A DNA stretch of 64,000 nucleotides from Methanomassiliicoccales archaeon. GTDB lineage: Archaea; Thermoplasmatota; Thermoplasmata; Methanomassiliicoccales; UBA472. The stretch lies in the NCBI GenBank assembly GCA_026394395.1, contig JAPKYK010000002.1, positions 183,653 to 247,652 of the forward strand. Reading direction: 5' to 3'. Both the position numbers and the translations under genes were made by a program. The notes below the pieces were generated by a model. The model worked only from the letters and a program-made list of their open reading frames with translations. It made no database searches and had not been told where the DNA came from. This document shows, one piece after another, positions 6,822 to 64,000 of this stretch (positions within the stretch are counted from its first letter, which is position 1; the number at the start of each line of letters is the position of its first letter).

Positions 6822-6933
6822 ATGATAACCCTTGGCAATACCCCATCAATGGACAAATGCTACTTATAATTACTGACACTCTGGTCGCGAACGCGCGTTT
6901 GTCCAGGAAGAATGACAAAAAAGAGACGTCCCG

Positions 6934-25400: not shown

Positions 25401-26859
25401 TCCCGTAATGATTGGATTCCAGGTCATTCCCATAAACATGCAGGTCATGAGAGAGCGAGACCAGCAGTCCGGTCTCGAGTCCGCCCTCGATGGTATTGTC
25501 GAATACCGCAGCTCCATGGATCGTATCAAGATTGATGCCGATCGAACCGATGGTGGCCAGATAGTTACCCGAGATCAAAATGTTACTACTGCTGTACACA
25601 GCGATGCCTGTGTTGGCTAGGCCCGTGATGGTATTGTTGACGATCTGGCAGTTCGAGCTCAAGGTTAGGAATACGGGCTTGTTGAACTCCCCGGTCTCAA
25701 AATCGATGACGTTATCTTCCACCCGCATGTCCTGGCATTGGTATAGATTGAACCCCTCGCTACCAAATGATGGTGTCACGGTGAGATCATTGTCAAGGAC
25801 GGTCACGTCGATGCAGTTCATAAAAGAGATACCGAAGGGGGCGCTGGCAACGGTGTTGTTTTGCACGCGGCCATTTTGTATAGTCAGGCGCATGTTGAAG
25901 TCCGAGGTATTGGTGCAGATGTTGCTATCCACGGTGACGTTCTCCGCATCGTCAAGGAAGATCGCGTAGACCGTATCGTTTATCCGGTTGTGACCGATAT
26001 GGACCTGGTCACTGGTGAATAGGGCGATGCCCTGGGCATGGGTCCCCACGAGGTCGTAAATATTATTCTGGATATCAATGTAGGTCACTTGTTGCCCATA
26101 AATGCCGTAGCTATAATCCCCAAAATTGGTGAACGTTGAATTTGTGATGGTGACTTCCGAAACATGATCAACGTTAATTCCCTGGCCGGCCTGTCGGTCC
26201 AAAGTGACGTTGTCCATGATAACGTAACGACTGGAATCGGTAATCGCAATGCCATAGATGCATCCAACGATAGCCGTATCGTTAATGGCTACATATTGCG
26301 AGTTCTTTACAAGAATTCCATAGGTTGGTGTCGTCCCTATTATATTCTTGAAGTTATAGTCGGTAATCACCCAGTATGAATATTCTATTGAGATTCCTAT
26401 GGTGGAGATGGAATTGATATCATTATTGAGCAGGGTGCAATTGTCGGATTGAGAAGCGACTATGCCGTAATCACAATCAGAGAATGCGCTCTCGTTCACG
26501 GTGACGCTCGAACAGTTCTGAAGATAGACCCCGTAGCCTCGCAGGGTCTCACTGACATATTGACAGTTGTGAATGGTGCAGTTTTCGATGTTCACGTAGC
26601 GCGTGGTGTCCTTCAGCCATATGCCATATCCTTCACCGGTACAGGTGATGTTGTAATCAGCGAAGACGTACGGACTTCCTTCCGTACCGTCGCCGGTGCA
26701 ATAACCGTCGACCTTGGCCTGGTCCAAGGCGGTGTCGCCTTCGAAGTGCAGCGGACCGCTGTCCCTCGCCGAAGCGTTCCCGGAGAACAGCATAACAGCG
26801 ATCAATAGCAATCCCAAGAATACGAATATGCCCAATGCTAAAGCTCTGCCCCGTGACAT
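19492..26859 (-). CDS. Giant cell-surface protein: signal/anchor, two parallel beta-helix (PbH1) modules, ~14 fibronectin type III domains, C-terminal TM anchor
   Basis: 2455-aa uninterrupted ORF. The N-terminus MSRGRALALGIFVFLGLLLIAVMLFSGNASA is signal-like. Repetitive N/G/I-rich ~22-aa beta-helix rungs are present. Repeated AP.AP..L...G...V.L.W..P..DGG..I.GY.VYR Fn3 units follow. The C-terminal end is PLPLIAVALGVVGLLVAVVAIVLVLRKK. Confidence 0.9.
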   Translation of the reverse strand: MSRGRALALGIFVFLGLLLIAVMLFSGNASARDSGPLHFEGDTALDQAKVDGYCTGDGTEGSPYVFADYNITCTGEGYGIWLKDTTRYVNIENCTIHNCQYVSETLRGYGVYLQNCSSVTVNESAFSDCDYGIVASQSDNCTLLNNDINSISTIGISIEYSYWVITDYNFKNIIGTTPTYGILVKNSQYVAINDTAIVGCIYGIAITDSSRYVIMDNVTLDRQAGQGINVDHVSEVTITNSTFTNFGDYSYGIYGQQVTYIDIQNNIYDLVGTHAQGIALFTSDQVHIGHNRINDTVYAIFLDDAENVTVDSNICTNTSDFNMRLTIQNGRVQNNTVASAPFGISFMNCIDVTVLDNDLTVTPSFGSEGFNLYQCQDMRVEDNVIDFETGEFNKPVFLTLSSNCQIVNNTITGLANTGIAVYSSSNILISGNYLATIGSIGINLDTIHGAAVFDNTIEGGLETGLLVSLSHDLHVYGNDLESNHYGIVLQNSYDATIEGNYANWSMVRGISVESGGSYSNVTVRYNFCVNCDTGIVVSAIGNVVVEDNDCSYGSNAGIFFSESMLSYAGNNTATHCGVGIDLGDSQGCMVHGGSFDYCNVGVSVGNEGGNIENVSASHCGAYGLQISNAMYTFVSNSTFSWNVYGISVNLDINHEQPITVKDCFIENNSADGLHAYGGHWADVFGNHFANNLDYGIYLGITCNSWWIYNNTFLNNNGISFIDPNSYQCYDQGTLDDWFVWAGDRNWGNGWSNLPNVDLNEDSYVDDSVWIGGSYLHYQYQLPYGPKIEAPAAPTGLVGVLSSCYIDLNWTEPVHGGNATVVYYYVYMGLSPGSLEFIGNTYGELFYQVNYELVNGNIYYFAVAAVNNYDFVSELSNIMEVNYTLYPLANSGPLIIHSDQEFADMADLKGWVGDGSVGSPYVIEDLIIDGSGWEDCIEIWHTTVHFVVRNCTFYFGTLGMSGNGIGLLDVVNGQFFECTFAGEMLNGINSELSQFIVEQCTFSGPSNYAVLAQYGFGILVANSTFDGCNTGIGLFSFNDVTIRGSSFLNCLTGVYAFEGEDLEVSENTAIGGRFIDLSVVATVTVEANVGTDIELFGYFNNANNVQVRNNTVDGNGNSVGLNIYQGYSVIVEGNSLSGFTTCISVSAGSFIQLLNNTVIDGSYNGMYLQSISIGLIEGNNVSGNGMHGMQLGSGISGLTVRGNIFGDNLGYGVYIDQSISATFTLNMFRGNNGNDGTYSTGTIQAFDKYLSCQWSSGGYGNYWAEWTSPDVDYDGIVDQPYGLGEEEYLDYAPLAHAFGVPTSLQAQVGNSWALLSWDEVIYDFTSGVDGYVIYRSLDAGGPFASIGTTTARHFNNTGLTMGTTYYYRVAAYRGAEIGSMCLPLSVTPCNTPGAPTGLSVSRGIGSLELSWTAPTDHGGAEITGYAIYRGTNPSSLAFLGNTLGIETIYFDGPFGNGETYYYAVRAINQAGPGAASATVGNTTFDAPSAPLNVDTQFGNHNVTVSWNAPSSDGGTLVTGYVVEVSHSGGSGYYYFGPAVRNALIISLANGVEYGFRVYAVNIAGEGDWSTIIYDTPATLPGAPEGLVAVPGNSSVSLSWQLPSDDGGDAPTSYNIYRMDLENGWALLGNSTVRSYVDSTVINGMIYYYRVSAVNKAGEGSISKETGAVPGLPLAPTGLTATNDGGNVRLNWTAPADDGGTDIVGYKVYRDGGSGFIYLGSVSAGSLSYLDATATPGIEYRYRVSAVTLNGEGSPSNAAILTLPLTSPEAPVIDSAVQEDDGVLIVWHVPESSTVPDQFLIYRGAASDSLMLIAIIDGDVLEYLDLAGTADMFYALRSSNQYGVSEMSAPYQATLGIVLPPEAPQGLTAIAGDSLVTLSWTASNGAVGYRVYRDNGSGYALLDTVAGVGYSDGTVLNGVPCSYRLTAYNDGGESGNSTTVLATPGSVPGAVQNLTLTEGAGIVTLDWEAPADDGGSAVLGYRVYRDLDGTVTLQAMVNIMTYTDHNVVSGLPHTYWVVALNAWGAGPESARVNVTPDEVVVTGLPAPSYLLATVGNGTVTLTWDPMVSFHVNGFRVFRSDGGNFTFLSAQNGSSYTDVGLVNGVTYTYRVYCFIGTANGENATVDATPGTVPGAATLNAQTAVDRITLGWSVPANGGSSIIGYRLYRTPGIGTTVLLASLTGNAYVDTSVLAGVNYTYMVTALNAFGEGAPSNTMVLRTNQQPSPNTDAPAAPYLISATGGNSSVTLLWSVPSDTGDGPITGYNVYRGTSPLALQLLVSVPAGSTTYVDGAAVYGTTYYYCVSALNQWGEGEPSRVLSASLVALAVPGEVNVEVEEGQGRLTLTWSVPDDQGSSAVTGYNIYRRGEGGDRQLIATVPAGTDTFVDGSVEPGAEYDYWVTAVNAAGEGPLPDAPVSGVPLAVITGVASPGPLPLIAVALGVVGLLVAVVAIVLVLRKK

Positions 26860-50639: not shown

Positions 50640-52100
50640 GTGATTTTTACGAAGGGTAAGATAATAGCCTTAGTTCTGGTGATATTAATGGGCCTGAGCC
50701 TGGTGTCATTGGCGCCCGGGGCTCAGGCGGATACCGTGGATTGGGTTCTGGAAGGGCAAATTCCCGGGGAGAGGTCGGCTTTCGTCTGGGCAGAGCTTCC
50801 GGATGGACGCATCTTCATGGGTCTGGGATTCAACTCCTCTTCGTATCAATATAGAAACGACAGCTGGATATTGGACCCCTTCGAGATGACCTGGACAAGA
50901 ATGGCCGATGCGCCCTATGGTATGGTATCGACCACCGCAGCTTACCTTGAAGGCAAGGTGTACGTCTTCGGAGGGTTCGACTCAATCGTCGGTCCCACCA
51001 CCAACGTGCTGATCTACGACGTGGATGCGAATGCATGGAGCACCGGTCCGGCCTTGCCCGCCACAAGTTCTCACATGAAATGTGTCGCGGTCGACGAACG
51101 GCACATCCTGGTCGTCGGTGGCGAATCATCGAGCTGGGTAAAGTGCTACCTGTTCGATGTGGAAACCCAGATATTTAACACGGCCGATGATCTCCCGGAC
51201 GGCAGGGCCGGCGGAACATTGGTCACGGTCGCCGACATTGCATACTATTTTGGTGGATGGACGTCTGGCTATGTCACATCGGATAGCATATTTGGTTATG
51301 ACGTGGTCAATGACAATTGGTGGACCGCGGACGAGCTCCCAGAACCCATGGCCGGCATGGCCGGGGTACTTGGGAGCGATGGGCTGATCTACCTTCTTGG
51401 AGGAGCTCTGAACCCAGCGTGGGGTGGGGCGAACACAGAACAAGCCATCGCCTGGGACCCCGTTGACAAACAGTTCATCGACCTGCCCGATCTGGCCGAA
51501 CCATTGAGATTTGCGGCGCCCTTCGAACTGGCTGATGGCCGGATAATGTACTTCGGTGGCCACAACGATGACCTGGGCAATCAGAACGTCTACTCCATTA
51601 AGGCCTGGAATATCGAGGCTACCTTGGACTCCGACACCGTGGGGCAAGGGGAGAGCGCCTGGCTGAGCCTAAACATTCACACCAACTTCGCCAAGGTCAA
51701 TGATTTGTATGGTACCGTTTACCTGATGGCCATGGGCGTGACCTTCGCCACTTACTACATCGAATCTCAGGGGGGCATGGTCAGCCTGGAGATACCTATA
51801 TCTCAGGAGACGCAACCGCTCGGCTACGTATTGGTGTTCTCCGATGTTGGTTCTAACTGGGTGCAGGATTTCACCATTGAACCGTTGGCCCTGACGGTCA
51901 CGGACACCCCGTCCATGCAGGACCGCTTGAACGATCTGCAAGAACAGAACCATGCCTTGCAGGATCAGTTGAACGAGACGCGGGACGAGCTGAAGGAAGC
52001 GACGGACGCCAAACTGGACGCTATGATTGGCTACATAATATTGATCATAGCCCTGGGCGCCCTAGTGGTTGGCGTCATAATCCTAGTACGTAAGAAGTGA
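50640..52100 (+). CDS. Secreted Kelch-repeat beta-propeller protein with coiled-coil stalk and C-terminal TM anchor
   Basis: 486 aa with an N-terminal signal-like helix. Repeated GK/GR.Y.FGG and W motifs are Kelch blades. The C-terminal region has MQDRLNDLQEQNHALQDQLNETRDELKEA followed by IGYIILIIALGALVVGVIILVRKK. Confidence 0.8.
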   Translation: MIFTKGKIIALVLVILMGLSLVSLAPGAQADTVDWVLEGQIPGERSAFVWAELPDGRIFMGLGFNSSSYQYRNDSWILDPFEMTWTRMADAPYGMVSTTAAYLEGKVYVFGGFDSIVGPTTNVLIYDVDANAWSTGPALPATSSHMKCVAVDERHILVVGGESSSWVKCYLFDVETQIFNTADDLPDGRAGGTLVTVADIAYYFGGWTSGYVTSDSIFGYDVVNDNWWTADELPEPMAGMAGVLGSDGLIYLLGGALNPAWGGANTEQAIAWDPVDKQFIDLPDLAEPLRFAAPFELADGRIMYFGGHNDDLGNQNVYSIKAWNIEATLDSDTVGQGESAWLSLNIHTNFAKVNDLYGTVYLMAMGVTFATYYIESQGGMVSLEIPISQETQPLGYVLVFSDVGSNWVQDFTIEPLALTVTDTPSMQDRLNDLQEQNHALQDQLNETRDELKEATDAKLDAMIGYIILIIALGALVVGVIILVRKK

Positions 52101-52123: not shown

Positions 52124-53695
52124 TTATCCGTTCAACCAGGACACGATCCCCTGGATGTCCTTGGTGCCCGTGGGAATGGATAGTACAGTCTGGCTACGCG
52201 GTAGGATGACCCCTTTCCGCCACTCCCCCTCTACCAAGAAGAGGACCTTGGCGTCGAACGTAGACAACCTCCCGGACAAAGACAGTAGCTCCCCTTCCCG
52301 GCCGCCGGTCAGGTCTACGATGAGTCGCGCGGCCTTCAGTTCCTGAACGGACCGCATCGAAGAGACGAAAAGGACGGACTCCTCGGGCGTCACCAGGTGC
52401 GGCAGGAAGCCGAAAAGCTCCTGGTTCATGAGGTACAGGTGCTCCTTGACCTGGTAGACAACCTCCACGGTGTCCTTCTCCCGGTTCATCGTGCCGTAGA
52501 TCACGGATTGGCCAGCCGCGGAGAGCGCCTCGGCTACGGTCGCCTCCGGCGGCTTGGAATGATAATCGCCGCAATCAGAGAAAATGACCAGGTGTTTGAA
52601 GTCCTCCTTCCGCCGCACCTGGCCCAGGCGGTCGATGACCTCCTGATTTTTCAACGGCCTCAGCTTCCTGCGCACCTTCCTTTTGAACAGCAGGCGAGAG
52701 CGTTTGTCCCCTTTCAGGTACTCGTCGCGGAACATGCGAAAGCCTCGGGAGAACCGGCGCTCCTTGCGCATGGCGTTGCCCTTGCCGCCCTTTCCCTCCA
52801 GCTCCCGAGCTTGATTGATAAGATACTCGAAGCCCTTCAAACGTACGGTGATCCGTTCCACCTCGGGCGAGCCGGGGTCCTTTTGCAAGAGCGCCTCGAC
52901 CTCCCGACGCATCTGGTTGTAGTACGCCAGGGTCAGGTCGTTGAACCGCCAGGGCTGCCCGTGCTTCTTCTCGTAGCGCTCGCGGTTGCGCTCGAAGAGC
53001 GCTTGATAGTCCTTCTCCACCAGCTTCTTGAAGGACAGGCTGCCCTTGTGATAGATGAAGCATCCTTCGTTGATCACCAGGCGGTAGCCGGCCTTCTTCA
53101 CCCTCAGGCAATAATCGTCGTCCTCGAACATGCCTATGCTGAACTCTTCGTCCAGCAGCCCGACCTTGTCCAGGACGTCGCGACGCATTGCCACGCAGTA
53201 GAAGCCCAGCTTCTCCGTGTCGAAGAGATGCCCCTTGTTCTTCGCCGTGTAACGCCCGGCCACCTCCACATAGTTCTCTTCGTTAAGGGATGGGAGCATG
53301 ATCATCTGCTCATTCCCAGCAGAGTTAGTGACAGGGCACATCAGGCCGATGGAGCGGTCCCTCTCCAACGGCGTCAGCAGCGCGTCCAGCCAGCCCGGTG
53401 TCATCAATGTGTCGTTGTTCAACAGGACGATGCGGTCGCCGGTGGCCGCGCGCAGACCGTCGTTGTTCCCGCCAGCGTAGCCTTTGTTGCTCTCGTTCAG
53501 GACCACCTTGACGTTGCCATGCTCCTTCTCCACCGTGCGCAGGTAATCAGACGTGCCGTCGGTGGAGGCGTTGTCCACCAGGACCAGCTCGATATCGTCA
53601 GCGTTCGTGAACTTGAAGATGCTCTCGACGCAGGGGACGGTGCCCTCCTTCAGCTGGTTGTAGGTAAGGACCACTACGCTCGCTCTCATGGCCAC
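52124..53695 (-). CDS. Family 2 glycosyltransferase with a ~220-aa C-terminal extension of unknown function
   Basis: 523 aa; ASVVVLTYNQ...LVLVDNASTDGT...NKGYAGGNNDG...LLNNDT is a GT2 (GT-A) signature. Confidence 0.88.
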   Translation of the reverse strand: MAMRASVVVLTYNQLKEGTVPCVESIFKFTNADDIELVLVDNASTDGTSDYLRTVEKEHGNVKVVLNESNKGYAGGNNDGLRAATGDRIVLLNNDTLMTPGWLDALLTPLERDRSIGLMCPVTNSAGNEQMIMLPSLNEENYVEVAGRYTAKNKGHLFDTEKLGFYCVAMRRDVLDKVGLLDEEFSIGMFEDDDYCLRVKKAGYRLVINEGCFIYHKGSLSFKKLVEKDYQALFERNRERYEKKHGQPWRFNDLTLAYYNQMRREVEALLQKDPGSPEVERITVRLKGFEYLINQARELEGKGGKGNAMRKERRFSRGFRMFRDEYLKGDKRSRLLFKRKVRRKLRPLKNQEVIDRLGQVRRKEDFKHLVIFSDCGDYHSKPPEATVAEALSAAGQSVIYGTMNREKDTVEVVYQVKEHLYLMNQELFGFLPHLVTPEESVLFVSSMRSVQELKAARLIVDLTGGREGELLSLSGRLSTFDAKVLFLVEGEWRKGVILPRSQTVLSIPTGTKDIQGIVSWLNG

Positions 53696-53704
53696 CCTTC
53701 CCCA

Positions 53705-56482
53705 TCAATCCGTGTTCTTTAGAACCTTTCGCTTCCTCTGGCCGGACCGCTCCATCTCCTTCAGGTGGTTGGCGATGTCCAGGAAGCGCTGGTCCCAGGA
53801 GCTGTTCCGGGCCACCTCGATGCGCTTGGCCCTCAGGGCCTCGTCGTTTTCTCCTAATGCGGCCAGGATCCCCCTCTCGAACTCCGTGTCCCCCTCGTAA
53901 AGGTAGCAGACCTCGGCGTACCGCTCCATCTCCGGCAGCCGGACGCTTACGACAGGCTTGCCACTGCTGATGTACTCGTAGAACTTGACCGGGTTGGTGG
54001 CCATGGTCAGGGGGACCACCCGGAAGGGGATGATGCAGACGTCGAAGTAATAAAGGTAGCCGGGCAGGTCCTTGTACGGCAGCTCCCCCAGCAGATGGAC
54101 GTTGGACAACCGTTTCAGCCCGTTGACATCACAACCAAGGGTAGAGCCGATCAGCACGAAGTTCCATTCCGGATGCTTCTCCGCGCAACGGGCCACTACC
54201 TGCGGGTCGAACCATTCGGAGATGGCCCCGTGATAGCCGATTATCGGCCTCTTCAGGGAGTCGAGCTTGCCGTTCGGGAACAGGGTGTGGAACATGTTGA
54301 AGTCGGTGCCGTTGCGCACCAGTATGGTGCTATCGTTGAACGCCGCCGCCTTCTCGTAGAGCTTGGCCGAGCTGGTGACCACCAGATCGGCCTTCCCCAT
54401 GAGCTGCGTTTCCCGTTTCACCACCTCGGTGGCGTTGTTGCTGAAGCCGGCGTGGTCGTCCATGCAGTCGAAGATCAACGTGCCGGACACACGGGAACGG
54501 CACAGGTCGGCCAGCTGCCCCCATCCGGGGAACTGCACCAGGTAGGTGACGGACTTGGCGTCCAATCGTCTCAGCACGCCCAATAGCCCGTGCGCAACAT
54601 TGTTGAGGTCCGCCCCCCGGATACGATCCTGGTAGACGTTCAGCTTGTTGAAGGAGCTCAAACGGAGCTCGTAGATGTGCTCCCGCAGCTTGCCCAGGGT
54701 CACATCCTTCAACGCCTCGGCGTCGTTGAGGTACCGGGCGCCCTTCGGCGTCAGGTCCATGTGAACGAAGATGACCGTGTACCCGTTATCGGCGAAGCGC
54801 GACACCAGCTGCTGCGGTCTCTGCCAGCGGAACTCCCAGGGTATGACCGGGAAGACCACCAGGACCTTCCGTCCGTCGGCGTTGGCCTCCACCTCCTCGA
54901 GGTTGGACGGCTCTGAACGATAGAACATGCCCTGGACCTTGGAAGGGGCCAGCTGCAGGGTCACGCTCTTGAACGTGGCCACCAGGCCGTCGGACTTGAG
55001 CTTATCTACAGCCTGCTTCTGCAGGCGAGCGAACTTCTCTATCCTTCCGATGGAGGGGATGCTGTCCAGGAACTCCAGCCGCAGCTGCATGCTGCGGGCC
55101 CAGTCGGACATGGTCATGAGTTCGGCCTGCTTGGCCATGAAGCGGTCGGTCATGTCCTGCAGGCGGACGAACTGCTCATCGCGCTGTTGAATCGCCTCGG
55201 TGATGCTGGCCTCGGCCTCGGCCAGCTCGATGTCCTGCCGCGCCATGGCCTCCCGGGCGATCAGGAGGTCGTTCTGGCTGATGTTCAGTTCGTCCCTCAT
55301 TTGTTGGGAGAGAATCCTCTCTCCCTCCAGCTCATCGATCAGCTGATGATTGCGCTTCTTCACGTCCTCCAGTTCCCAGGTGGTCTGAACTAGGCGTTCC
55401 TTTTCCTTCTCCAGTTCCTTAATGAGCTGGAAGGCGTGGTCCCGTTCAAATTCCATCTGGGCCTGCACGGCCATCTTACGCAGCCTCTCTGATTCCAGAT
55501 CAACCCGCAAGGTGCCCAACAATCCGTCTTTATCTGCCAGTGACGTTTCGTAACGGACGATGGCGTCAGCCATCTCGCCTAATTTCTTTTCCTGGTTGTG
55601 GAGTTGATCATCTTGTAAACGGGCATTAAGCAGCATCTCGCTAAGAGCGGTCTTTGTAGCATCCAGCTCCAATCTGACAGAGTTTAGCTGTTGCTCCCGG
55701 TCTTGTAGGAAGGTTTGACTTGCCAGCTGATGAGACCTCTTACAATATTGCGGGGGAACCATGTGAGAACGGTCCTTTCCAAAAACCATGTCGATGAACT
55801 TTTCGCACGCCTCTCTATACACTCCCCACAAATCCTTGGGGATCTCTAATTCCATAAGGGCCTCTGGGAATGTCAGCAATGGTCCTAATCTCCGCTCTTG
55901 TTTCAGAAAGAGGACGTACAGGGCACGATATAGAACAAAAGACCGGGGGACATGGGAATCGAACACCCATTCGTGATCGGTTATCCAGTAACGCCCGCTC
56001 CCGTCAATGATAATATTATCGAAGGTCAAATCGAGGTTTGTCACGGGCATCAGGTCGATCAAGAAGGATTCTGGTACATCTTGGAGAAGTTCGTTCACGA
56101 ATCCTTCGATACTCGCCCTTCCATCCACAGATCCTAATGAAGCCAGATAGGTCTGGTACTTTTTAAGCAGACCGATCAAGCCTGCCCGATCGTTCCTCTT
56201 CGCCAGGGTTAGAAGGGCTTGCTCGAAGGAGGCACCTTCAATATAATCGAACTCCACGGCATCGTCTATTACAGTGCCCGATGGTATGTTGGCATCTGTC
56301 AGCTTATCCCTCAACAACTGACCGCCTCTAAAAATATTGATGATGTGAGGTATCCCTTCTGGTGAAAGAGCTCGTTTGAGGACCTTACGACCTTCAGACG
56401 TGGACAGGACGGTCGTTTCAGTACGGTACGAAGAAAGTCTTTCCCGATTGTACTTAATAAAGTCGATCCTTCGCTGGGTCAT
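53705..56482 (-). CDS. Tripartite protein: N-terminal protein-kinase-like domain, ~220-aa coiled coil, C-terminal GT-B (GT1/GT4-like) glycosyltransferase
   Basis: 925 aa. The N-terminal region has VLKR (beta3 Lys), FDYIEG (hinge), NLDLTFDNIII (catalytic-loop D..N) and YWITDHEW (metal-binding D), resembling APH/LPS-kinase/WbdD-type kinases. Residues ~260-480 are heptad-rich and low-complexity (Q/E/L/R). The C-terminal part has VLVVFPVIPWEFRWQRPQQL and a GT-B E..E region. Confidence 0.75.
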   Translation of the reverse strand: MTQRRIDFIKYNRERLSSYRTETTVLSTSEGRKVLKRALSPEGIPHIINIFRGGQLLRDKLTDANIPSGTVIDDAVEFDYIEGASFEQALLTLAKRNDRAGLIGLLKKYQTYLASLGSVDGRASIEGFVNELLQDVPESFLIDLMPVTNLDLTFDNIIIDGSGRYWITDHEWVFDSHVPRSFVLYRALYVLFLKQERRLGPLLTFPEALMELEIPKDLWGVYREACEKFIDMVFGKDRSHMVPPQYCKRSHQLASQTFLQDREQQLNSVRLELDATKTALSEMLLNARLQDDQLHNQEKKLGEMADAIVRYETSLADKDGLLGTLRVDLESERLRKMAVQAQMEFERDHAFQLIKELEKEKERLVQTTWELEDVKKRNHQLIDELEGERILSQQMRDELNISQNDLLIAREAMARQDIELAEAEASITEAIQQRDEQFVRLQDMTDRFMAKQAELMTMSDWARSMQLRLEFLDSIPSIGRIEKFARLQKQAVDKLKSDGLVATFKSVTLQLAPSKVQGMFYRSEPSNLEEVEANADGRKVLVVFPVIPWEFRWQRPQQLVSRFADNGYTVIFVHMDLTPKGARYLNDAEALKDVTLGKLREHIYELRLSSFNKLNVYQDRIRGADLNNVAHGLLGVLRRLDAKSVTYLVQFPGWGQLADLCRSRVSGTLIFDCMDDHAGFSNNATEVVKRETQLMGKADLVVTSSAKLYEKAAAFNDSTILVRNGTDFNMFHTLFPNGKLDSLKRPIIGYHGAISEWFDPQVVARCAEKHPEWNFVLIGSTLGCDVNGLKRLSNVHLLGELPYKDLPGYLYYFDVCIIPFRVVPLTMATNPVKFYEYISSGKPVVSVRLPEMERYAEVCYLYEGDTEFERGILAALGENDEALRAKRIEVARNSSWDQRFLDIANHLKEMERSGQRKRKVLKNTD

Positions 56483-56485
56483 GGT

Positions 56486-57382
56486 TTAACGCCTGCAGAA
56501 CACCAGGAATGAATTGGCCATCAGAGAGTATGCCCCGTTCATCAATAAGCTGTCGCACGTTAGACCCTCATCGAACAGGGCAAAGCGCTCCTGATCGTAG
56601 TTAGGTGACATTTTGCCCATATCGCCAATCGAAGGAAGTAAACGGTCGGAATAGATGCATTCTGGCAATTTGTAATCTGGATACGGATAATAGAACTCTA
56701 GGTCTGAGAACCCTGTCTCCACGAGCATATTTCTTATCTCTTCCCGTCCGAAAGTGCGAAATCCCTCCTCTCCAGGATATCCCTCCAATCCTTGGAACAG
56801 TACGCCAGAGTGGTCCTCCGGTGTCCCAGCCCAATATTTCAATCCCAGCTTGTTCTCTATGGCCAAGATCAAAGTACCGTTGTCCTTAAGCGCGGAAATG
56901 GCGTGTTTAAGCATTTCCTGATAGGGTTGGGGGGAACGTTGGTATATACCAGCGTATTCCAGGACACCAATCAGGGTGACGTAATCGAACCCCTTCAAGC
57001 CACCAATGTTGTCGAACTTGCCAGCGTATACGGTCAGGTTCTGCATCGTGCTGTGCCTGGCTGCTATGATGCTTGCCCGTCGCGGAGATATTTCCACGGC
57101 GGTCACCGAACGAACTTTTTCACAGAACAGGCCAGTTAGAGCTCCGCAGCCCGCACCAATTTCCAGCAACGACGCCTCCTTCGAGAAAGGGTACCATTCC
57201 AGAAGGTTCTTCCGTCGTTGGTCTAGATGATATAGTACAGCCCATCGCTGGTCATGGCGTATCGCATCTTCGAGATCGTTACCCGATCTCACCAAGGTGA
57301 GTATGTCCTCCTCAACATCACCATCAGAATATTGGTCCTGGTCGCTCACGTGGTCCAAGATCAATTTCGGTCCATTGTTCAT
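56486..57382 (-). CDS. Class I SAM-dependent methyltransferase
   Basis: 298 aa; LLEIGAGCGALTGLF is motif I. The stop is 3 nt upstream of the start of the kinase/coiled-coil/GT gene. Confidence 0.85.
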   Translation of the reverse strand: MNNGPKLILDHVSDQDQYSDGDVEEDILTLVRSGNDLEDAIRHDQRWAVLYHLDQRRKNLLEWYPFSKEASLLEIGAGCGALTGLFCEKVRSVTAVEISPRRASIIAARHSTMQNLTVYAGKFDNIGGLKGFDYVTLIGVLEYAGIYQRSPQPYQEMLKHAISALKDNGTLILAIENKLGLKYWAGTPEDHSGVLFQGLEGYPGEEGFRTFGREEIRNMLVETGFSDLEFYYPYPDYKLPECIYSDRLLPSIGDMGKMSPNYDQERFALFDEGLTCDSLLMNGAYSLMANSFLVFCRR

Positions 57383-57624
57383 AGAACCTTCACTCCCGGA
57401 GGTCTGAAGTTGTATTGTTGGAATTCATATGGTGATATATACTTATTGAAACCCGGGGAACTGGAATAAAATAATAAATGGGTTGGCGGGTCCGCTCAGC
57501 GGAAGATTGGAATTGCATAGAAAAGAGCTGTTTAATGATATCACTGGGGCATGGATCAAAGAAACTAATAATGAAACGATGTAAATCGTCATACATCAAG
57601 GCGACCTGTTCGATTATACTTTTT

Positions 57625-57728
57625 GGCTCTGACGCTAAACTGATGTTTCTATCAGAAATGATGGTTAGCCAGTTATTCTATATCATTCACTGGTAAGAGC
57701 TGTTGATATAGTTTGGCGTCAAAACCAT
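57625..57728 (+). repeat. Left copy of a ~104-bp inverted repeat (MITE-like unit with its own 16-bp terminal inverted repeats)
   Basis: 57625-57704 matches the reverse complement of 59314-59393 at 79/80 positions. The inner 24 nt match at 20/24. Unit ends: GGCTCTGACGCTAAAC (57625-57640) versus the reverse complement of 57711-57726, GGTTTTGACGCCAAAC. Confidence 0.9.
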
Positions 57729-57805
57729 TAAGGTTGAATTTGCCCATCATGAAGTCCGTTTCATTCAATTCGAAATGAGCAAAGAGGTCGAGCGGAGATA
57801 TTCAT

Positions 57806-59248
57806 ATGGAAGATAGGAAGGTAACCCGGGTCATTTCGGTCATGCTCTTATTAATGTTACTGTCTGGTTCGTTCCTCGTCATTGCTGGGGATACGGTATA
57901 TGCAGCCCAAGAAGGTGACTATACGTATACGATAGACGAAGGAATGGCCACCATAACAGGTTATACCGGCACGGGAAACAACATTACGATCCCCGACATG
58001 CTCGGAGGATGTCCTGTCGTGACCATCGGCAATAATTCCTTTTCTGGTCACGACTCCTTGACATCTGTGACCATCTCAGGCAATGTCACCACCATCGGAG
58101 AGGGTGCTTTCTCCGCCTGCCCCAACATAGTATCGGTGTTCATCCCGAGCAGCGTGAACACCATCGGCATGGGAGCGTTCCTGTATTGCTATGCCATGGA
58201 CTCGATAGATGTTGACGCGGCCAATCAGAACTTTACTAGCGTCGACGGGGTGCTCTACAACAAGAACGTGACAATCCTGATACAATTCCCGGGCGGAAAG
58301 GCTGGCGAGATGGTCATCCCTGAAAGCGTCACCTCCGTCGGTTCGAGAGCGTTCAACACCTGCCCGTTCCTGATCGGCATCACGATCTCCTGCAACGTGA
58401 CGACCATCGAGGAATATGCCATCGTCCAATGCGCATCTCTGAGATGGATCGATGTGAATGCATCGAACCCGTCCTTCGCCAGCGCCCTTGGCATGCTTTA
58501 TGATAAGAATTTAACGACCCTGATCCAATGCCCGGGCGGAGCGTCTGGCGAGCTGGAGATCCCTGAGAGCACGTCGGCCATCGGGAACTGGGCCTTCGCA
58601 TATTGCCCTTCATTGACCTCGGTCACCGTTCCCGGTAACGTAACGACCATCGGTTTCGGGGCGTTCCATTCCTGTACGTCCCTGACAACCATTACGTTCC
58701 TCGGTCTGGTGGCGCCGGTACTGGTCGGGGACCTGTGGATCGCGGAGACCGACCCGGAATTGCGGGGACACGCATACGCCGCCTCGAACTTCCCGATGCC
58801 TGGGGAAACCTTTTATGGACTGGAGATGGGAGAGGTCGTCCCGATCGTTCCCAGCGCACCTCTCGCAGTCTTTGCCGTTCCATATGATGGACATACCCTC
58901 TTAATGTGGGGGCCCCCCATCAGCGACGCGGGCTACGCCATCGCGAACTATTCGATCTATCGTTCGGTCGCAGACACCAGCAATTACAGTCTGATAGCCA
59001 TCGTCCCATGTTATGTTTATGTCTACAACGATACCAACCTGACCAAGGGAGAGATGTACTGGTACAAGCTCGCAGCCAACAATGTTAACGGCGAAGGCGT
59101 TCATAGCGTTGGCGTGTCCGTGACCATCCCTTTGGATGATGAGGCTACCAGCGTCAATCCTATCGTGATCTATGTGGCAGTGGTCGCGATTATCGCAATA
59201 CTGACCCTAATATTGCTTATGATGTATAAACGTAAGAATACGAATTAG
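57806..59248 (+). CDS. BspA-type leucine-rich-repeat surface protein with Fn3 domain and C-terminal TM anchor
   Basis: 480 aa with a signal-like N-terminus. Repeats of the type IP.SVT.IG..AF..C..L..I are LRR_5/BspA-like. An Fn3-like segment (PSAPL...W..P..D.GY.I..Y.IYR) follows. The end is IVIYVAVVAIIAILTLILLMMYKRKNTN. Confidence 0.85.
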   Translation: MEDRKVTRVISVMLLLMLLSGSFLVIAGDTVYAAQEGDYTYTIDEGMATITGYTGTGNNITIPDMLGGCPVVTIGNNSFSGHDSLTSVTISGNVTTIGEGAFSACPNIVSVFIPSSVNTIGMGAFLYCYAMDSIDVDAANQNFTSVDGVLYNKNVTILIQFPGGKAGEMVIPESVTSVGSRAFNTCPFLIGITISCNVTTIEEYAIVQCASLRWIDVNASNPSFASALGMLYDKNLTTLIQCPGGASGELEIPESTSAIGNWAFAYCPSLTSVTVPGNVTTIGFGAFHSCTSLTTITFLGLVAPVLVGDLWIAETDPELRGHAYAASNFPMPGETFYGLEMGEVVPIVPSAPLAVFAVPYDGHTLLMWGPPISDAGYAIANYSIYRSVADTSNYSLIAIVPCYVYVYNDTNLTKGEMYWYKLAANNVNGEGVHSVGVSVTIPLDDEATSVNPIVIYVAVVAIIAILTLILLMMYKRKNTN

Positions 59249-59289
59249 ACGATGATGGTCAAACACCTTCCATTTTCCTTTTATATACT

Positions 59290-59393
59290 ATGGCTTTGAC
59301 GCTAAACTCTATAAACAGCTCTTACCAGTGAATGATATAGAATAACTGGCTAACCATCATTTCTGATAGAAACATCAGTTTAGCGACAGAGCC
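59290..59393 (-). repeat. Right copy of the ~104-bp inverted repeat
   Basis: Reverse complement of the left copy, with a single mismatch in the outer 80 nt (59386 vs 57632). Ends: GGCTTTGACGCTAAAC (59292-59307) and GTTTAGCGACAGAGCC (59378-59393). Confidence 0.9.
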
Positions 59394-59445
59394 CTTTTTT
59401 ATTATCCGGATGTTTTATTAAATGATAACCAACCGGTCCATTCAT

Positions 59446-60990
59446 TTATCGAGGTTTGTAGACCCCAAAAAGCTCAGTGCCACGCCCTCCATTCTTAAAG
59501 TGATCGAGCTCAGCCTCCACCATTCGGACGATCAACTGACGGTCATCGAGGTTCTGGGCATTGTAATTGTCGTTATATGCGAGATTCAGTAAACGCCACA
59601 GGAAGCAATTTCTACGAAACACGTCTAATGGCTTGAACCATCGTTCTAACGTAGGCTCGATATCTTCGCTACGGATCCCTTCAAAACAACCCACTGAGTA
59701 ATCGTTGTCCGGAATTTCCGTATCCACAGTGCCAGTATTACGATTCAACCTGAATTTTTCTGGCAGCTCTTTAAATATCCCATTCGCTACGTCCAAAGCT
59801 TCCGGCCACAGTCGATTGCCATTCCTTCCCACATACTCTCCAATGCTCCAGAACTCACCATCATCGTTCAGACTTTTATGACAGAACTCAATTAGCTTTT
59901 CTAGTTCAACAATATGATGGAGCGCAGAGACACAAATGATGATGTCCCATTTTTCACCCGAATATTGTAAATCATTCGCGTCCGCTTCGATGAGATCAAG
60001 GCTCACCGTTGGAGCGAACTGTTTCGATGCCATGCAAAGTAGATCTGGATTAATATCGAGAAGCGACCATTCCACATTATTCCCTACGTGCGAAGCAAAA
60101 TCTGCTTCTATCCTGGCCGCTCCACTACACAATGACAGGACCTTCAGTGGCTTACCATTATCAGCTTTTAATTTCAATCGCCCTACGAAATCTGGGGCGG
60201 ACTCTGTGATGTTTGCAGCCAGCAAGCGCGACCCGTAGGCGTAAGGGGACTCATGAGAAAGCGGTCCGATGTGATTTAATCGATCTATCTGATATGGCAC
60301 AGCATTGATTTCACTACAATGCAATTTTCTAACTGGTCGGGCTTGACCTTGAGCTATGTTCGACCGTTCATCCTGCATTTGAGAATACATGGTGTGACGA
60401 TAGACATGACTAAAATGATCGATTTCATTGCGGGACCTCTGTTCGTGAAAGGTACGAGCTTTCATCAAAGATAACCGTTCTACTCTCGCAACGCATAGTT
60501 CGGCGATGGCGAGCCAATCCCCGATCGGATCATTTTTCGGCCCTGGAAGGCATTTAAAAATGAAATATCCTTGCCTACCCATTAAAAATGATACATCGAG
60601 ATGCGCTTCCCTCCATTGTGATGTCTGCTGACCACCGGAAATAGAGAAAGAAGCAATCATCTCCACATCTTTTCGTTTCTCTAATCGCTCAGAGAAGCTC
60701 ACTTCTAAGACCAAACCATCGCTACTGATTTTCGGTATCCCAGCACCATATCGGACATATAATTTCGTGTCTTTCTTAACTTTAATGCTCTTTGTGATCA
60801 CCAATTCTTCGCCAGCCAACAAGATCAACGATTGGCGCTTGTCGATGCAATGGGCGACCTGCATCCATCTTGGAAACATAACTCCATTCGGAGTTCCTGA
60901 GATCCGGAATGGTGATCCATCCTCGAGATAAAACTCATCCGAAAAGGAGCCCTTGCCATCATCGATTGCTTGAGTAGAAATATCGGTCAT
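59446..60990 (-). CDS. Class I SAM-dependent methyltransferase with ~250-aa N-terminal domain of unknown function
   Basis: 514 aa. VLSLCSGAARIE (motif I-like) and DIIICVSALHH sit in the C-terminal half. The gene lies in lower-GC DNA between wzt and the repeat-flanked cassette. Confidence 0.75.
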   Translation of the reverse strand: MTDISTQAIDDGKGSFSDEFYLEDGSPFRISGTPNGVMFPRWMQVAHCIDKRQSLILLAGEELVITKSIKVKKDTKLYVRYGAGIPKISSDGLVLEVSFSERLEKRKDVEMIASFSISGGQQTSQWREAHLDVSFLMGRQGYFIFKCLPGPKNDPIGDWLAIAELCVARVERLSLMKARTFHEQRSRNEIDHFSHVYRHTMYSQMQDERSNIAQGQARPVRKLHCSEINAVPYQIDRLNHIGPLSHESPYAYGSRLLAANITESAPDFVGRLKLKADNGKPLKVLSLCSGAARIEADFASHVGNNVEWSLLDINPDLLCMASKQFAPTVSLDLIEADANDLQYSGEKWDIIICVSALHHIVELEKLIEFCHKSLNDDGEFWSIGEYVGRNGNRLWPEALDVANGIFKELPEKFRLNRNTGTVDTEIPDNDYSVGCFEGIRSEDIEPTLERWFKPLDVFRRNCFLWRLLNLAYNDNYNAQNLDDRQLIVRMVEAELDHFKNGGRGTELFGVYKPR

Positions 60991-61056: not shown

Positions 61057-62334
61057 TTATCCAATCCGTTCAATATTCATCTCCATACCCATGTCAAAAT
61101 AGCCCACGACGAACTTTGATGCAACCACTTGAAAAAAGAATATGTCATAGAGGCGATGATGCACAACAAACTCGCCCCGTTCGTCAAAACGGGTGCATCC
61201 CAGGGAAACAAGGTACTGCCCCCCCGCTAGCGTCATGGTCTGCCGGAAGGATACCACATACTCCTCTCCTTCGTGCAAGAGCGGTATATCCAGCATCTCA
61301 AATTGGGAGTTTGTTCCGGTCAGCTCGTTCCCCTTGATATCCTTGATGGTCAAAGCGAAAATGGGGGACTGCACATCTTCTTTGATACGGACGCGCATCT
61401 TGAACGTGCACTCCCTCTGCTTGATTACGGACTGGATTATGGCACCGTCTTCATCAAAGAGGCCGAAATCGACAATGCACATTTTTCTGTCCCCATAATC
61501 AAGTTTATTGGGGTTCAGGACCAGGCTTGATTTCCAAGGAACATCCTGAGACGTAGTAGATCGTTCCTCGATCTCCACCCCATCATCCGATTGGGTATGG
61601 AGGTTCACAGCGACCTTCTTGTATAGGTCGACCATACTTTTCGGGCTACCCTCGGCCAATTTCTTACCTTCGTGTAAAACCATCGCTCTATCACAGTACT
61701 TCAGCACGCTGTTCATGTCGTGCGTGACGAAAAGGATGGTCTTCCCGGCCTTCTTGAAGTCCTCGAACTTGCGGTAGCACTTGGCCTGGAAGTAGATGTC
61801 GCCCACGCTCAGCGCCTCGTCGACGATGAGAACCTCCGGGTCGACGTTGATAGCGAGCGCGAACGCCAGGCGAACGAACATGCCGCTGCTGTACGTTTTC
61901 ACCGGTTGGTCTATGAACTCCCCGATGTCGGCAAACTCCACGATGGCCGGGACCAGCTTCTCTATCTCCTGACGGCTCATCCCTTGCATGGTCCCATTGA
62001 GGAAGATGTTCTCCATGCCGGTCATCTCCGGATTGAAGCCCGCCCCCAGTTCTAGGAGCGCGGCCACTTTACCCTTCACCACGACCTCGCCGGAGGTCTG
62101 GTAGGACACCCCAGTCAATATCTTGAGCAATGTGGACTTGCCAGAACCGTTCCGGCCCAGTATCCCAACGGTCTCTCCCTGATGCACCACCAGGTCCACA
62201 CCTTCCAGGGCGTGGAAGTCCGTGTGGTACTTCCGGCGACGGGGGTCCAAGGCCTCCTTGGCCCGGTCCGACTGCTTCTTGTAGAGCCGATATACCTTCC
62301 CCACCCCCTTGATGGAAATAACCTCGTGGTCCAT
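61057..62334 (-). CDS. wzt: Polysaccharide/O-antigen-type ABC exporter ATP-binding protein with C-terminal Wzt-like carbohydrate-binding domain
   Basis: 425 aa. The N-terminal part is the TagH/Wzt type (Walker A GRNGSGKSTLLK, SSGMFVRLAFA, Walker B LIVDEALSVGD). An extra ~170-aa beta-rich C-terminal domain is present. Confidence 0.85.
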   Translation of the reverse strand: MDHEVISIKGVGKVYRLYKKQSDRAKEALDPRRRKYHTDFHALEGVDLVVHQGETVGILGRNGSGKSTLLKILTGVSYQTSGEVVVKGKVAALLELGAGFNPEMTGMENIFLNGTMQGMSRQEIEKLVPAIVEFADIGEFIDQPVKTYSSGMFVRLAFALAINVDPEVLIVDEALSVGDIYFQAKCYRKFEDFKKAGKTILFVTHDMNSVLKYCDRAMVLHEGKKLAEGSPKSMVDLYKKVAVNLHTQSDDGVEIEERSTTSQDVPWKSSLVLNPNKLDYGDRKMCIVDFGLFDEDGAIIQSVIKQRECTFKMRVRIKEDVQSPIFALTIKDIKGNELTGTNSQFEMLDIPLLHEGEEYVVSFRQTMTLAGGQYLVSLGCTRFDERGEFVVHHRLYDIFFFQVVASKFVVGYFDMGMEMNIERIG

Positions 62335-62343
62335 CAGTTCACC

Positions 62344-63135
62344 TCACAGCACGTCCGCCAGGTGCGGCCTCAGCTTTTGGAAGACTATGCTTCCGGCGAT
62401 CAGGAACACGATGGTCATGGCCCAGAAGATAACGGTGGCGAGCGGGTCCAAGGTGAACTCGCCTAAGATCGAGGTTCGATAGCCGTCGACCACGTAGGCC
62501 ATGGGGTTGATGAGCATGAGCCAGTGATACTCTTCCGGTATAGCGTTCTGCGACCACAGTATCGGCGTGAGATAGATTCCGAACTGCAGGATGATAGTAA
62601 GCATCTGCCGCATGTCCTTGAAGAACACCACGATGGATGATGTGAGGAAGCTAAGCCCCCAGACAAGTATGAATGTGCAAAATAGGTAGTATAGCACGCC
62701 AAGGGAAGAAAGATGCGCACCCTCTCCATAAATGACCAGGAAAATCACTAAGATAACGTGGAAGATGATGCTGGTGAGGAGCGAGGAAATGATCTTGACT
62801 GTAGGTAGGATCTCAACCTTGAAGACCATCTTCTTGACTAAGAACGAATACTGAGTGAGAGCATTAGTGGCATTGGACCAGGCGTCAGAGAAGAAGAACC
62901 AAGGAATGAGGCCGATAATGAACCATAGGACGAACGGCACACCCTCGACAGTGGTTATGCCGAGAGCGAACTCGAAGACGAACCAGAAGAGGAAGATCAG
63001 GCTCAGGGGCTGCAATATCTCCCAGAGCAGGCCGTAATAGGAGCCGACGTAGCGGGTGCGGAAGTCAGATTTGGTCAGGGAACGGATAAGTCCCAAGGAT
63101 CGAACATTTTCGCGAATGATGTCCTGCGCGCCCAT
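62344..63135 (-). CDS. wzm: ABC-2 type polysaccharide exporter permease
   Basis: 263 aa with six TM helices, immediately upstream of wzt. Confidence 0.85.
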   Translation of the reverse strand: MGAQDIIRENVRSLGLIRSLTKSDFRTRYVGSYYGLLWEILQPLSLIFLFWFVFEFALGITTVEGVPFVLWFIIGLIPWFFFSDAWSNATNALTQYSFLVKKMVFKVEILPTVKIISSLLTSIIFHVILVIFLVIYGEGAHLSSLGVLYYLFCTFILVWGLSFLTSSIVVFFKDMRQMLTIILQFGIYLTPILWSQNAIPEEYHWLMLINPMAYVVDGYRTSILGEFTLDPLATVIFWAMTIVFLIAGSIVFQKLRPHLADVL

Positions 63136-63241
63136 CCTTCAAACTGCCCTCCCTTCATCCTGATGCCATTCGAGCCTTTTAGCTATAATACACCGCATAG
63201 ACATATAAAAATCGGCTTAGAAAATGATGAGCTCAAGGGTC

Positions 63242-64000
63242 TCACCGCAACCTTCTGATCATTAACGTTATGGCAATGGCAGCAAGCGACACAACCAAAG
63301 TCCCTGATAGTACGTAGATAGGGGTATCTTCATAGGTATTGAACGGAGGGCCCACCGGGTTGGTTTTCACTTCCGAATGAGGAATATAGACAATCATCGC
63401 CTGTCCTCCAGTGGAATAGACGACCTCGTTCCGTCCTTCCGTTTGGCTCAAAATATTTTCAATTGGAGTGTAGGATTGACGAGAACTTCCATTATAATTT
63501 GTAGATATCGCCCAACCATTTTTTACATTCCAACTGGATAGGTATAGTAGGGCATCTGTTTGATTTTCCGTCCACTGATACCTGAGAATTTTAATATTGG
63601 TTCCTTCACCAGCGAAGATGGGAAATCTATGCCAATCAGCTGTCACTGGATAGTTGCCCCGATGATCTACATCACTGACCCATTTGGCTGATAGTACGTC
63701 AGAATCTGAGTATACGGACCAACTGGTATTTGGGTTGAGGGCGAATGAGTTGGTATAATGACCAGTCGCATAGTAAATAGTCCCAGTATTGAAGAGTAAA
63801 AATGTGATAAGAAAGATCGCCCCGGCCTTTTTTACGATTCCGTCACTAGCGAGCCTCGAGACGATGCTAATGTCACCAAGGTGCTTACCCCGGAAGAACG
63901 ACACAACAGCATATAGGCCAAGGATAAGGAATCCCGACAGAAATATGTAGGCCACCTGGAAGAACCGGGCGAAATAGAAGGAGTACGACAGGCGGGGTAT
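63242..64000 (-). CDS. C-terminal part of a large polytopic membrane protein with an extracytoplasmic domain (DUF2206-like / glycan-assembly associated); 5' end outside the window
   Basis: The frame stays open upstream of the track's GTG at 63955 to the window edge (...IPRLSYSFYFARFFQVAYIFLSGFLILG). It has hydrophobic helices, a ~170-aa soluble domain and a terminal TM helix (LSGTLVVSLAAIAITLMIRRLR). Confidence 0.6.
   Translation of the reverse strand: MPRLSYSFYFARFFQVAYIFLSGFLILGLYAVVSFFRGKHLGDISIVSRLASDGIVKKAGAIFLITFLLFNTGTIYYATGHYTNSFALNPNTSWSVYSDSDVLSAKWVSDVDHRGNYPVTADWHRFPIFAGEGTNIKILRYQWTENQTDALLYLSSWNVKNGWAISTNYNGSSRQSYTPIENILSQTEGRNEVVYSTGGQAMIVYIPHSEVKTNPVGPPFNTYEDTPIYVLSGTLVVSLAAIAITLMIRRLR

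Follow-up and report, generated by a model that had tools for sequence, protein, structure and literature searches.

The question raised by this locus is how a gene for a surface protein came to lie between two long inverted repeats and against the direction of a glycan gene cluster in a Methanomassiliicoccales archaeon. The DNA analyzed, referred to here as the window, is a 64,000-nt stretch of contig JAPKYK010000002.1 (assembly GCA_026394395.1, positions 183,653 to 247,652). An earlier interpretation made from the letters of the window (the sequence-only reading) had offered two answers: a composite cassette mobilized by two copies of a non-autonomous element, or an invertible DNA segment. 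Here, the first of these is favored. The 1,769-bp segment 57625-59393 is probably a composite transposon-like cassette, in which two inverted copies of a unit resembling a miniature inverted-repeat transposable element (MITE) bracket the gene for a leucine-rich repeat (LRR) surface protein. This answer is favored by the MITE-like anatomy of the repeats, a partial copy of the unit at an unrelated locus of another genome, a direct repeat at the outer ends, and collinear gene clusters in relatives.

The two repeat arms occupy 57625-57728 (left copy, plus strand) and 59290-59393 (right copy, minus strand, inverted relative to the left). Each arm is 104 nt long, the reverse complement of one agrees with the other at 99 of 104 positions, and the arms are 1,561 nt apart. 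These values agree with the earlier count of 79/80 matches with a mismatch at 57632/59386, followed by 20/24 further inward, and with the earlier estimate of about 1.56 kb between the arms. The arms differ at unit positions 8, 81, 85, 91, and 100 and have in common an identical core of 72 nt (P = 0.013 under uniform scatter of the five differences). Four of the five differences fall within the inner 24 nt, and two of the five lie within the inner terminal repeat of the left copy. In the window, the two arms were the only sites of a 25-mer and a 31-mer taken from the unit, none of 100 shuffles gave a match, and no diverged copy of the unit was found by nhmmer elsewhere in the 64 kb.

Each arm has the structure of a small element by itself. 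The unit is 102 to 104 bp in size, has a GC content of 38.5% (58.3% for the window), and is non-coding, its longest open frame comprising 23 to 24 codons. In the left copy, the outer terminal inverted repeat, GGCTCTGACGCTAAACT (57625-57641, plus strand), pairs with the inner one, AGTTTGGCGTCAAAACC (57710-57726, plus strand), at 14 of 17 positions. In the right copy, the corresponding repeats (outer, 59377-59393; inner, 59292-59308; minus strand) pair at 15 of 17. Small size (about 50 to 500 bp), lack of coding capacity, and terminal inverted repeats are characteristic of MITEs, and all are found in this unit. Owing to the 17-nt end symmetry within each arm, the arms can be identified as two MITE copies rather than as one long inverted repeat. 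Judged by its sequence, each arm is a complete MITE-like unit, and the long inverted repeat consists of two opposed copies. The 104-bp inverted repeat described in the sequence-only reading is thus present, but the palindromy of the ends within each arm had been overlooked.

In addition, each unit was predicted to fold into one hairpin closed by its own terminal repeats, with z values of -3.6 and -5.2. Such strong predicted folding would also suit a local RNA or DNA structure, in which a transcript running across the segment forms a stem of 104 bp, serving to insulate or process the operon or the LRR mRNA, and nothing is mobile; this was the fallback of the earlier reading. We regard this explanation as extremely unlikely. 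No Rfam family matched the arms at the gathering threshold or at E <= 1, the end of the element recurs at an unrelated locus of another genome, and both the direct repeat and the absence of the segment from relatives would be left unexplained.

The outer ends of the pair are marked by the direct repeat CTTTTT, which lies immediately outside both arms in the same orientation (57619-57624 and 59394-59399), just as had been noticed before, and which is a putative target-site duplication. The terminus of the element is set at GGCTCTG by three independent ends, namely the left arm, the right arm, and the partial copy in the other genome; thus, the direct repeat is 6 bp long and not 5 bp. The chance of an abutting 6/6 direct match was 6.3e-4 when calculated from the composition of the flanks and 7.2e-4 when estimated from sampled AT-rich window positions, and a match by chance is unlikely. 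The direct repeat flanks the composite, and neither single copy has its own. As would be expected if the inner ends are dispensable, four of the five differences between the arms are located in the inner 24 nt. A passenger free of transposase between two copies of one MITE, with direct repeats at the outermost ends, is characteristic of a MITE-bounded composite transposon, and this arrangement is present here.

Comparison with relatives suggested when viewed as gene order that the segment is an addition to the cluster. In L008 (Logan, run SRR5198901; 72% amino acid identity of the methyltransferases [MT]), the order is DUF2206-Wzm-Wzt-MT519-MT304-GT1, with a spacer of 203 nt between the two MT genes. 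In L017 (JGI contig Ga0617938_0000583; 63% identity), it is DUF2206-Wzm-Wzt-MT512-MT301-GT1-GT2-DUF6506-ABC, with a spacer of 389 nt. Both clusters are collinear with that of the window, and in neither does an LRR gene lie between the two MT genes. The distance between these genes in the window is 2,063 nt, of which the cassette plus one copy of the direct repeat makes up 1,775 nt. Since two collinear relatives have this gene order without the LRR gene, the segment is read as an insertion, and the reconstructed empty site would be GATTATACTTTTTTATTATCC.

The surroundings of the insertion were confirmed by family matches to be as previously claimed: on each side lie three minus-strand genes with glycan-related functions (Wzm, Wzt, and MT on one side; MT, GT1, and GT2 on the other). 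The left flanking gene (56486-57382, minus strand) encodes a 298-amino-acid (aa) S-adenosylmethionine (SAM) methyltransferase, and the right flanking gene (59446-60990, minus strand) encodes a 514-aa SAM methyltransferase (MCX6650724.1), both by profile match. The stop codon of the latter is 52 nt from the right arm. A promoter-like box, ATATATACTTATTGA, is located outside the cassette at about 57434-57450, some 55 nt upstream of the 298-aa methyltransferase gene. This box, (A/T)T(A/T)TA(T/A)ACTTATTGA, is kept in the window, in L008 (about 6810-6830), and in L017 (spacer 8540-8928), where the spacers are otherwise unalignable. As far as can be read from these alignments, the insertion sits in the spacer, and neither an ORF nor the conserved promoter-like box is broken.

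These features can be combined into a mechanism. A transposase encoded elsewhere would recognize the two outermost GGCTCTG... ends and would move the entire segment between them. The target site would be an AT-rich spacer, 52 nt beyond the end of one methyltransferase gene, and the conserved promoter of the following gene would lie further downstream. The move would duplicate the 6-bp target CTTTTT, and the outcome would be an adhesin-like gene placed antisense inside a Wzm/Wzt-type glycan cluster with every open reading frame (ORF) intact. Among the 48 ORFs of the 64-kb window, no transposase or recombinase family was matched in Pfam or NCBIfam, in agreement with the earlier statement that the window holds no such gene; six of the ORFs had no match in either library, and two others had weak or uninformative NCBIfam matches. 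With no transposase matched in the window, the enzyme must act in trans. That the block moved as a unit, that its enzyme acts in trans, and where its promoter and terminator lie are all points that we infer.

Further copies of the unit had been proposed as a search target in the sequence-only reading; one partial copy was detected at an unrelated locus, and none further in the 64 kb. The partial copy is on contig CAVWKV010000059.1 (L012) of the uncultured Methanomassiliicoccales archaeon MFD02138.bin.1.27. Its outer terminal 17-mer is the same as that of the left arm. Unit positions 1-18 and 31-49 are identical there and keep the spacing that they have in the unit, and nhmmer aligned positions 1-64 (E = 1.9e-9). 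The similarity stops at the terminal base shared with both arms, and the locus, which carries genes for a PAS/MCP chemoreceptor and for CbiM/CbiQ, bears no relation to the window. No transposase was found within 7.6 kb of this copy. A second element end in L012 was considered and rejected, as the tail similarity beyond about position 64 was no better than that of shuffles (192/500 were as good). On this evidence, the L012 copy would appear to be a solo or decayed end, or to belong to a different subfamily.

A similar AT-rich motif (ATTATACTTTTT, TTATATACTAT, and TTTACTATAGA) occurs no more than about 10 nt before three of the five unit ends known, at 57614-57624 and 59281-59291 of the window and at 7660-7672 of L012. 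Possible reasons for the motif are that TATA-like DNA is preferred as a target or that the end of the element extends slightly further.

Searches of larger collections were also carried out. A 27-mer of the unit had no match in 185,579 species genomes, among which the source metagenome-assembled genome is not included. The terminal 18-mer had four matches in the same collection, namely L012 and three bacterial sites. The latter were rejected as copies of the unit: two are coding, one is a terminator hairpin, no further similarity was present, and the matches are attributed to chance. A conserved 19-mer gave only one chance match in JGI metagenomes, in two orthologous contigs. A word scan of viral contigs gave no match, plasmids and phages gave no meaningful match, and a peptide search of a protein collection with a 46-aa synthetic query from the open frame of the unit gave no candidate. 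No MITE or insertion sequence (IS) element of Methanomassiliicoccales was described in the literature searched, and GGCTCTGACGCTAAACT...GAAATGATGGTTAGCCAGT is apparently an undescribed archaeal MITE end.

The number of copies seen bears on whether the arms were ever separate elements. The segment might instead represent one non-autonomous element that has captured a gene and whose terminal inverted repeats are 104 nt long, or the remnant of some other integrating element, the 17-nt symmetry being incidental or structural. The presence of only two copies, both as arms, agrees with such an origin, as does the fact that L012 keeps just the outer 52 to 64 nt or so, the part that is relevant as a transposon end. 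We nevertheless consider this origin unlikely, because in each arm the inner end repeats the outer 17-mer in inverted form (14/17 and 15/17), as is typical of a complete small element. Moreover, such an element would differ from a composite cassette mainly in its history and not in its mechanism.

Alternatively, two MITEs may have inserted independently beside a gene that arrived by other means, such as a recombination event exchanging a variable glycan core, so that the three never formed one mobile block. Intergenic DNA rich in AT is preferred by MITEs, and the spacers that contain the two arms are of this kind. The core of the cluster is mosaic and low in GC (66 to 73% identity to L008, versus 82 to 87% in the outer parts), and a Kelch gene at 50640-52100, which is missing in L017, has no flanking repeats, indicating that genes enter the cluster without MITEs. 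This course of events also seems improbable to us. No direct repeat surrounds either copy by itself, whereas the outermost ends are flanked by a 6/6 match, and it would be a strange coincidence for two inverted copies to bracket exactly one gene with none elsewhere in 64 kb.

The assembly itself is supported by independent contigs. In the Logan k-mer contigs of runs SRR20698647, SRR20698648, and SRR20698649, all pieces were 100% identical to the window. They comprised the left flank joined to unit positions 1-38 or 1-80, the right flank joined to positions 1-38, and the interior joined to positions 51-104 of both arms. Both flank-arm junctions were recovered in SRR20698647 and SRR20698649, and the left one in SRR20698648; the cassette interior with its arms was present in a contig of SRR20698649 (reported in two samples). 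The contig breakpoints are exactly those that a k=31 graph yields when two arms disagree at position 8 and again from 81 onward. Both flanks join one end type of the unit, GGCTCTG[A/T]CGCTAAACTGATGTTTC..., so that a single solo copy is excluded and two inverted copies with an interior are required. The cassette structure is not an assembly artifact. As the 72-nt identical core is longer than k=31, the Logan contigs are uninformative on the orientation of the cassette.

In SRR20698648, the right-flank contig (L004/L006 pair) ends at window position 59408, 15 nt short of the arm, and the left-flank contig passes through unit positions 1-80 without branching; that assembly thus lacks the right outer junction. 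The simplest explanation is low coverage, and a strain variant at this junction is possible.

The passenger of the cassette is a single plus-strand gene (57806-59248; MCX6650723.1) for a 480-aa BspA-type LRR surface protein. The match to LRR_5 (PF13306) was strong (E = 7.7e-38; 129.7 bits versus a cut-off of 27.7). At the N terminus lies a hydrophobic, signal-like segment, and at the C terminus a transmembrane segment followed by the short basic-rich tail YKRKNTN. The protein had been described as a BspA-type LRR/fibronectin type III (Fn3) protein, and its name at NCBI is "fibronectin type III domain-containing protein"; the LRR assignment and the single gene hold, but no Fn3 match at E <= 0.01 was obtained in the Pfam scan. 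The closest LRR homologs (49 to 56% identity) are found in other gene contexts, for example between MFS and H2TH genes (MFS-LRR-H2TH) in a 1.96-Mb contig and a JGI contig, and neither the unit nor comparable repeats surround the closest homologs (L009, L010, L019, L020, and L021).

The candidate expression signals of this gene lie within the cassette. The best TATA-box-like motif upstream of the gene, TTGATATA (57703-57710, plus strand; 7/8 to TTTATATA), is within the left arm, and a Shine-Dalgarno (SD)-like GGAG is found by motif match at 57794-57797 (plus strand). A T-rich stretch, TTTTCCTTTT (59273-59282, plus strand), lies 3' of the LRR stop codon. Archaeal transcription generally terminates at oligo-T, which makes this stretch a candidate terminator. 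At face value, the cassette resembles a self-contained expression unit, with a TATA-like box, an SD-like motif, an ORF, and a T-rich stretch. Just interior to the right arm, at 59280-59287 (plus strand), is a perfect match to the archaeal TATA consensus, TTTATATA, which overlaps the T-rich stretch. It points outward through the right arm, antisense to the operon, and its minus-strand mirror faces the 3' end of the LRR gene.

This layout is relevant to the second answer of the sequence-only reading, a programmed invertible segment conferring phase variation. Here, 57729-59289 would be flipped by a site-specific recombinase or by frequent homologous recombination, and either the adhesin-like gene would change in expression or the glycan operon in read-through. 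The occurrence of an extended, nearly perfect inverted repeat around a surface-protein gene is suggestive of such a switch, and gene conversion or recombination between the arms would fit the 72-nt identical core (P = 0.013). After a flip, the gene would be co-directional with the operon and the T-rich stretch would face operon read-through. Known invertible switches (fimS, Hin/Gin/Cin, and the Bacteroides invertons) also have an inverted-repeat-bounded segment beside or containing a gene for a surface structure. In these switches, the repeats measure about 10 to 30 bp, a dedicated recombinase is encoded next to them, and what is inverted is a promoter or a set of alternative gene ends. In contrast, the cassette has 104-nt arms, several-fold longer than typical invertase sites and with the anatomy of a MITE, encloses a whole self-contained gene, and lies in a window whose 48 ORFs match no recombinase or invertase family. 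As judged from motif matches, the best TATA-like, SD-like, and T-rich signals would all flip together with the gene, leaving no evident switch logic, while the downstream methyltransferase has its own conserved promoter-like box. Inversion also leaves the outer direct repeat unexplained. Taken together, a programmed switch is very unlikely.

Occasional inversion is a different matter. Among the bacterial elements known as TIME-COMPs, one with inverted arms is reported to occur with its interior in either orientation, in 52 versus 62 of 114 replicons (PMC13367494). Likewise, the interior of the cassette may at times be inverted through homologous recombination of its 104-nt arms, as a by-product and not as a function. 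A more far-reaching idea is that the inverted MITE pair acts as an archaeal flip-flop, its frequent recombination toggling the adhesin-like gene between antisense and co-directional positions in the glycan operon, and that MITE pairs might shuffle adhesin-like genes among Methanomassiliicoccales. We hold this to be a long shot. If true, it would mean coupled variation of surface protein and surface glycan, and archaeal phase variation derived from domesticated MITEs.

The composite cassette has close counterparts among known systems. In Tn5 and Tn10, inverted terminal modules surround the passenger, the outermost ends are used, the target duplication lies around the block, and the inner ends are free to decay. 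In the cassette, too, the differences between the arms are concentrated at the inner ends; however, the modules of Tn5 and Tn10 encode transposase, whereas the cassette arms are too small to encode anything.

TIME-COMPs are a nearer match. They are 1 to 10 kb long, are bounded by two MITE copies in direct or inverted orientation, are flanked by 5-bp or sometimes 6-bp AT-rich direct repeats, and transpose with a transposase supplied in trans (PMC4133298, PMC13367494). The cassette resembles them in having a short non-autonomous pair, a passenger without transposase, and AT-rich direct repeats outside the outermost inverted repeats. On the other hand, TIME-COMPs are bacterial, whereas the cassette is archaeal, chromosomal, and located in a glycan cluster. 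The units of TIME-COMPs are about 200 to 260 bp with Tn3-type inverted repeats (IRs) of about 38 bp, compared with a 104-bp unit with 17-nt ends here, and their passengers are resistance genes and not an adhesin-like gene.

A link to Tn3 was also considered. The IR of the Tn3 family is about 38 bp, starts with GGGG, and ends with ACGYTAAG; the 38-mer IR of Tn3 was present in at least 5,000 plasmid records. Strict membership of the unit among Tn3-derived TIMEs was rejected, as its repeat is 17 nt long and starts with GGCTCTG, and ACGCTAA is found at positions 8-14 and not at 31-38. In a post hoc comparison, the terminal 18 nt (57625-57642) matched the Tn3 IR at 13/18 positions with a 1-nt offset, including the 9-mer TCTGACGCT, and 1.7e-4 of shuffles were as good. 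The resemblance is loose, no Tn3-family transposase was matched in the window, and a Tn3 link of the unit ends would be a lead only. The 6-bp AT-rich duplication of the cassette is within the range reported for Tn3-derived MITEs.

Among bacteria, MITE-flanked class 1 integrons of Acinetobacter and other MITE-mobilized resistance genes have an identical MITE pair around a block that is thought to be mobile in trans (PMC10969869). Like the cassette, these integrons place a MITE pair around a functional gene unit; they differ in being bacterial, in their larger MITEs, and in the occurrence of the block in several contexts, whereas one context is known for the cassette. In archaea, MITEs are known from Sulfolobus (SM1-SM4), Halobacterium, Haloquadratum, and a few others, and are non-coding elements with terminal inverted repeats that depend on IS transposases in trans (PMC10969869). 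These archaeal MITEs are multicopy, with 25 to 44 copies per genome; of the present unit, two copies are seen in 64 kb. Archaeal MITEs are not known, from that review or otherwise, to bracket and carry a passenger gene. MITE-bounded gene cassettes are known in bacteria and hardly documented in archaea, and the present archaeal example with an adhesin gene is probably the first described.

Several points weigh against a composite cassette. The case rests on one locus, and the CTTTTT duplication represents one event, in T-rich DNA. The sequences flanking each single copy differ (CTTTTT versus ATTAAG; ATACTAT versus CTTTTT), so that the target duplication typical of a MITE is not found around either copy, which is nevertheless expected if the block moved by its outer ends. 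Of the multiple dispersed copies typical of a MITE, only two are visible in 64 kb, both of them arms at this site; the Logan breakpoints, too, are wholly explained by the two arms and give no hint of further identical copies. The sole outside relative, L012, shares only the terminal 52 to 64 nt or so and has no recognizable second end. Neither the window, nor the surroundings of L012, nor the 18-mer scan yielded an autonomous element whose ends match, and the collection scans were exact-word searches, which would miss diverged copies. Finally, the empty site is backed by gene order only: at 63 to 72% protein identity, the spacers of L008 and L017 are too diverged at the insertion point to give an empty site at base level and can be aligned only at the conserved promoter box.

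Large, rapidly changing repertoires of BspA-like adhesin-like proteins are found in Methanomassiliicoccales and in other archaea associated with hosts or sediments, and little is understood of how their genes are moved. If the composite cassette is real, the MITE-bounded route documented for bacterial resistance genes would extend to archaeal surface-protein genes. The new end could also be used as a probe for the partner transposase. The cassette opens no new category or principle.

Some further observations concern the glycan cluster and the surface proteins of this genome. DNA identity between the window and L008 is 82 to 87% at 52818-55347 and 61065-64000 and falls to 66 to 73% at 55409-57449 and 59465-60943. 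This diverged part is the low-GC core of the cluster (45% for the gene of the 514-aa methyltransferase and 50% for that of the 298-aa methyltransferase, compared with 58% for the window), and homologs of the methyltransferase at 50 to 60% identity occur in Pseudomonas and Nitrosomonadales. From its composition and identity profile, the mosaic core looks like an exchanged, serotype-like variable region.

The Kelch gene at 50640-52100 is a second plus-strand gene for a surface protein, located at the other end of the minus-strand glycan cluster. Its product has Kelch repeats, a signal-like N terminus, and a C-terminal transmembrane anchor ending in RKK; in L017, where the gene is missing, the gap between GT2 and DUF6506 is 57 nt. 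In addition, 19492-26859 (minus strand) encodes a predicted surface protein of 2,455 aa that contains nine beta-helix/NosD stretches along with six Fn3 domains. Its gene lies between housekeeping genes (CarB and an EamA transporter) and represents a further member of the large adhesin-like repertoire of this genome.

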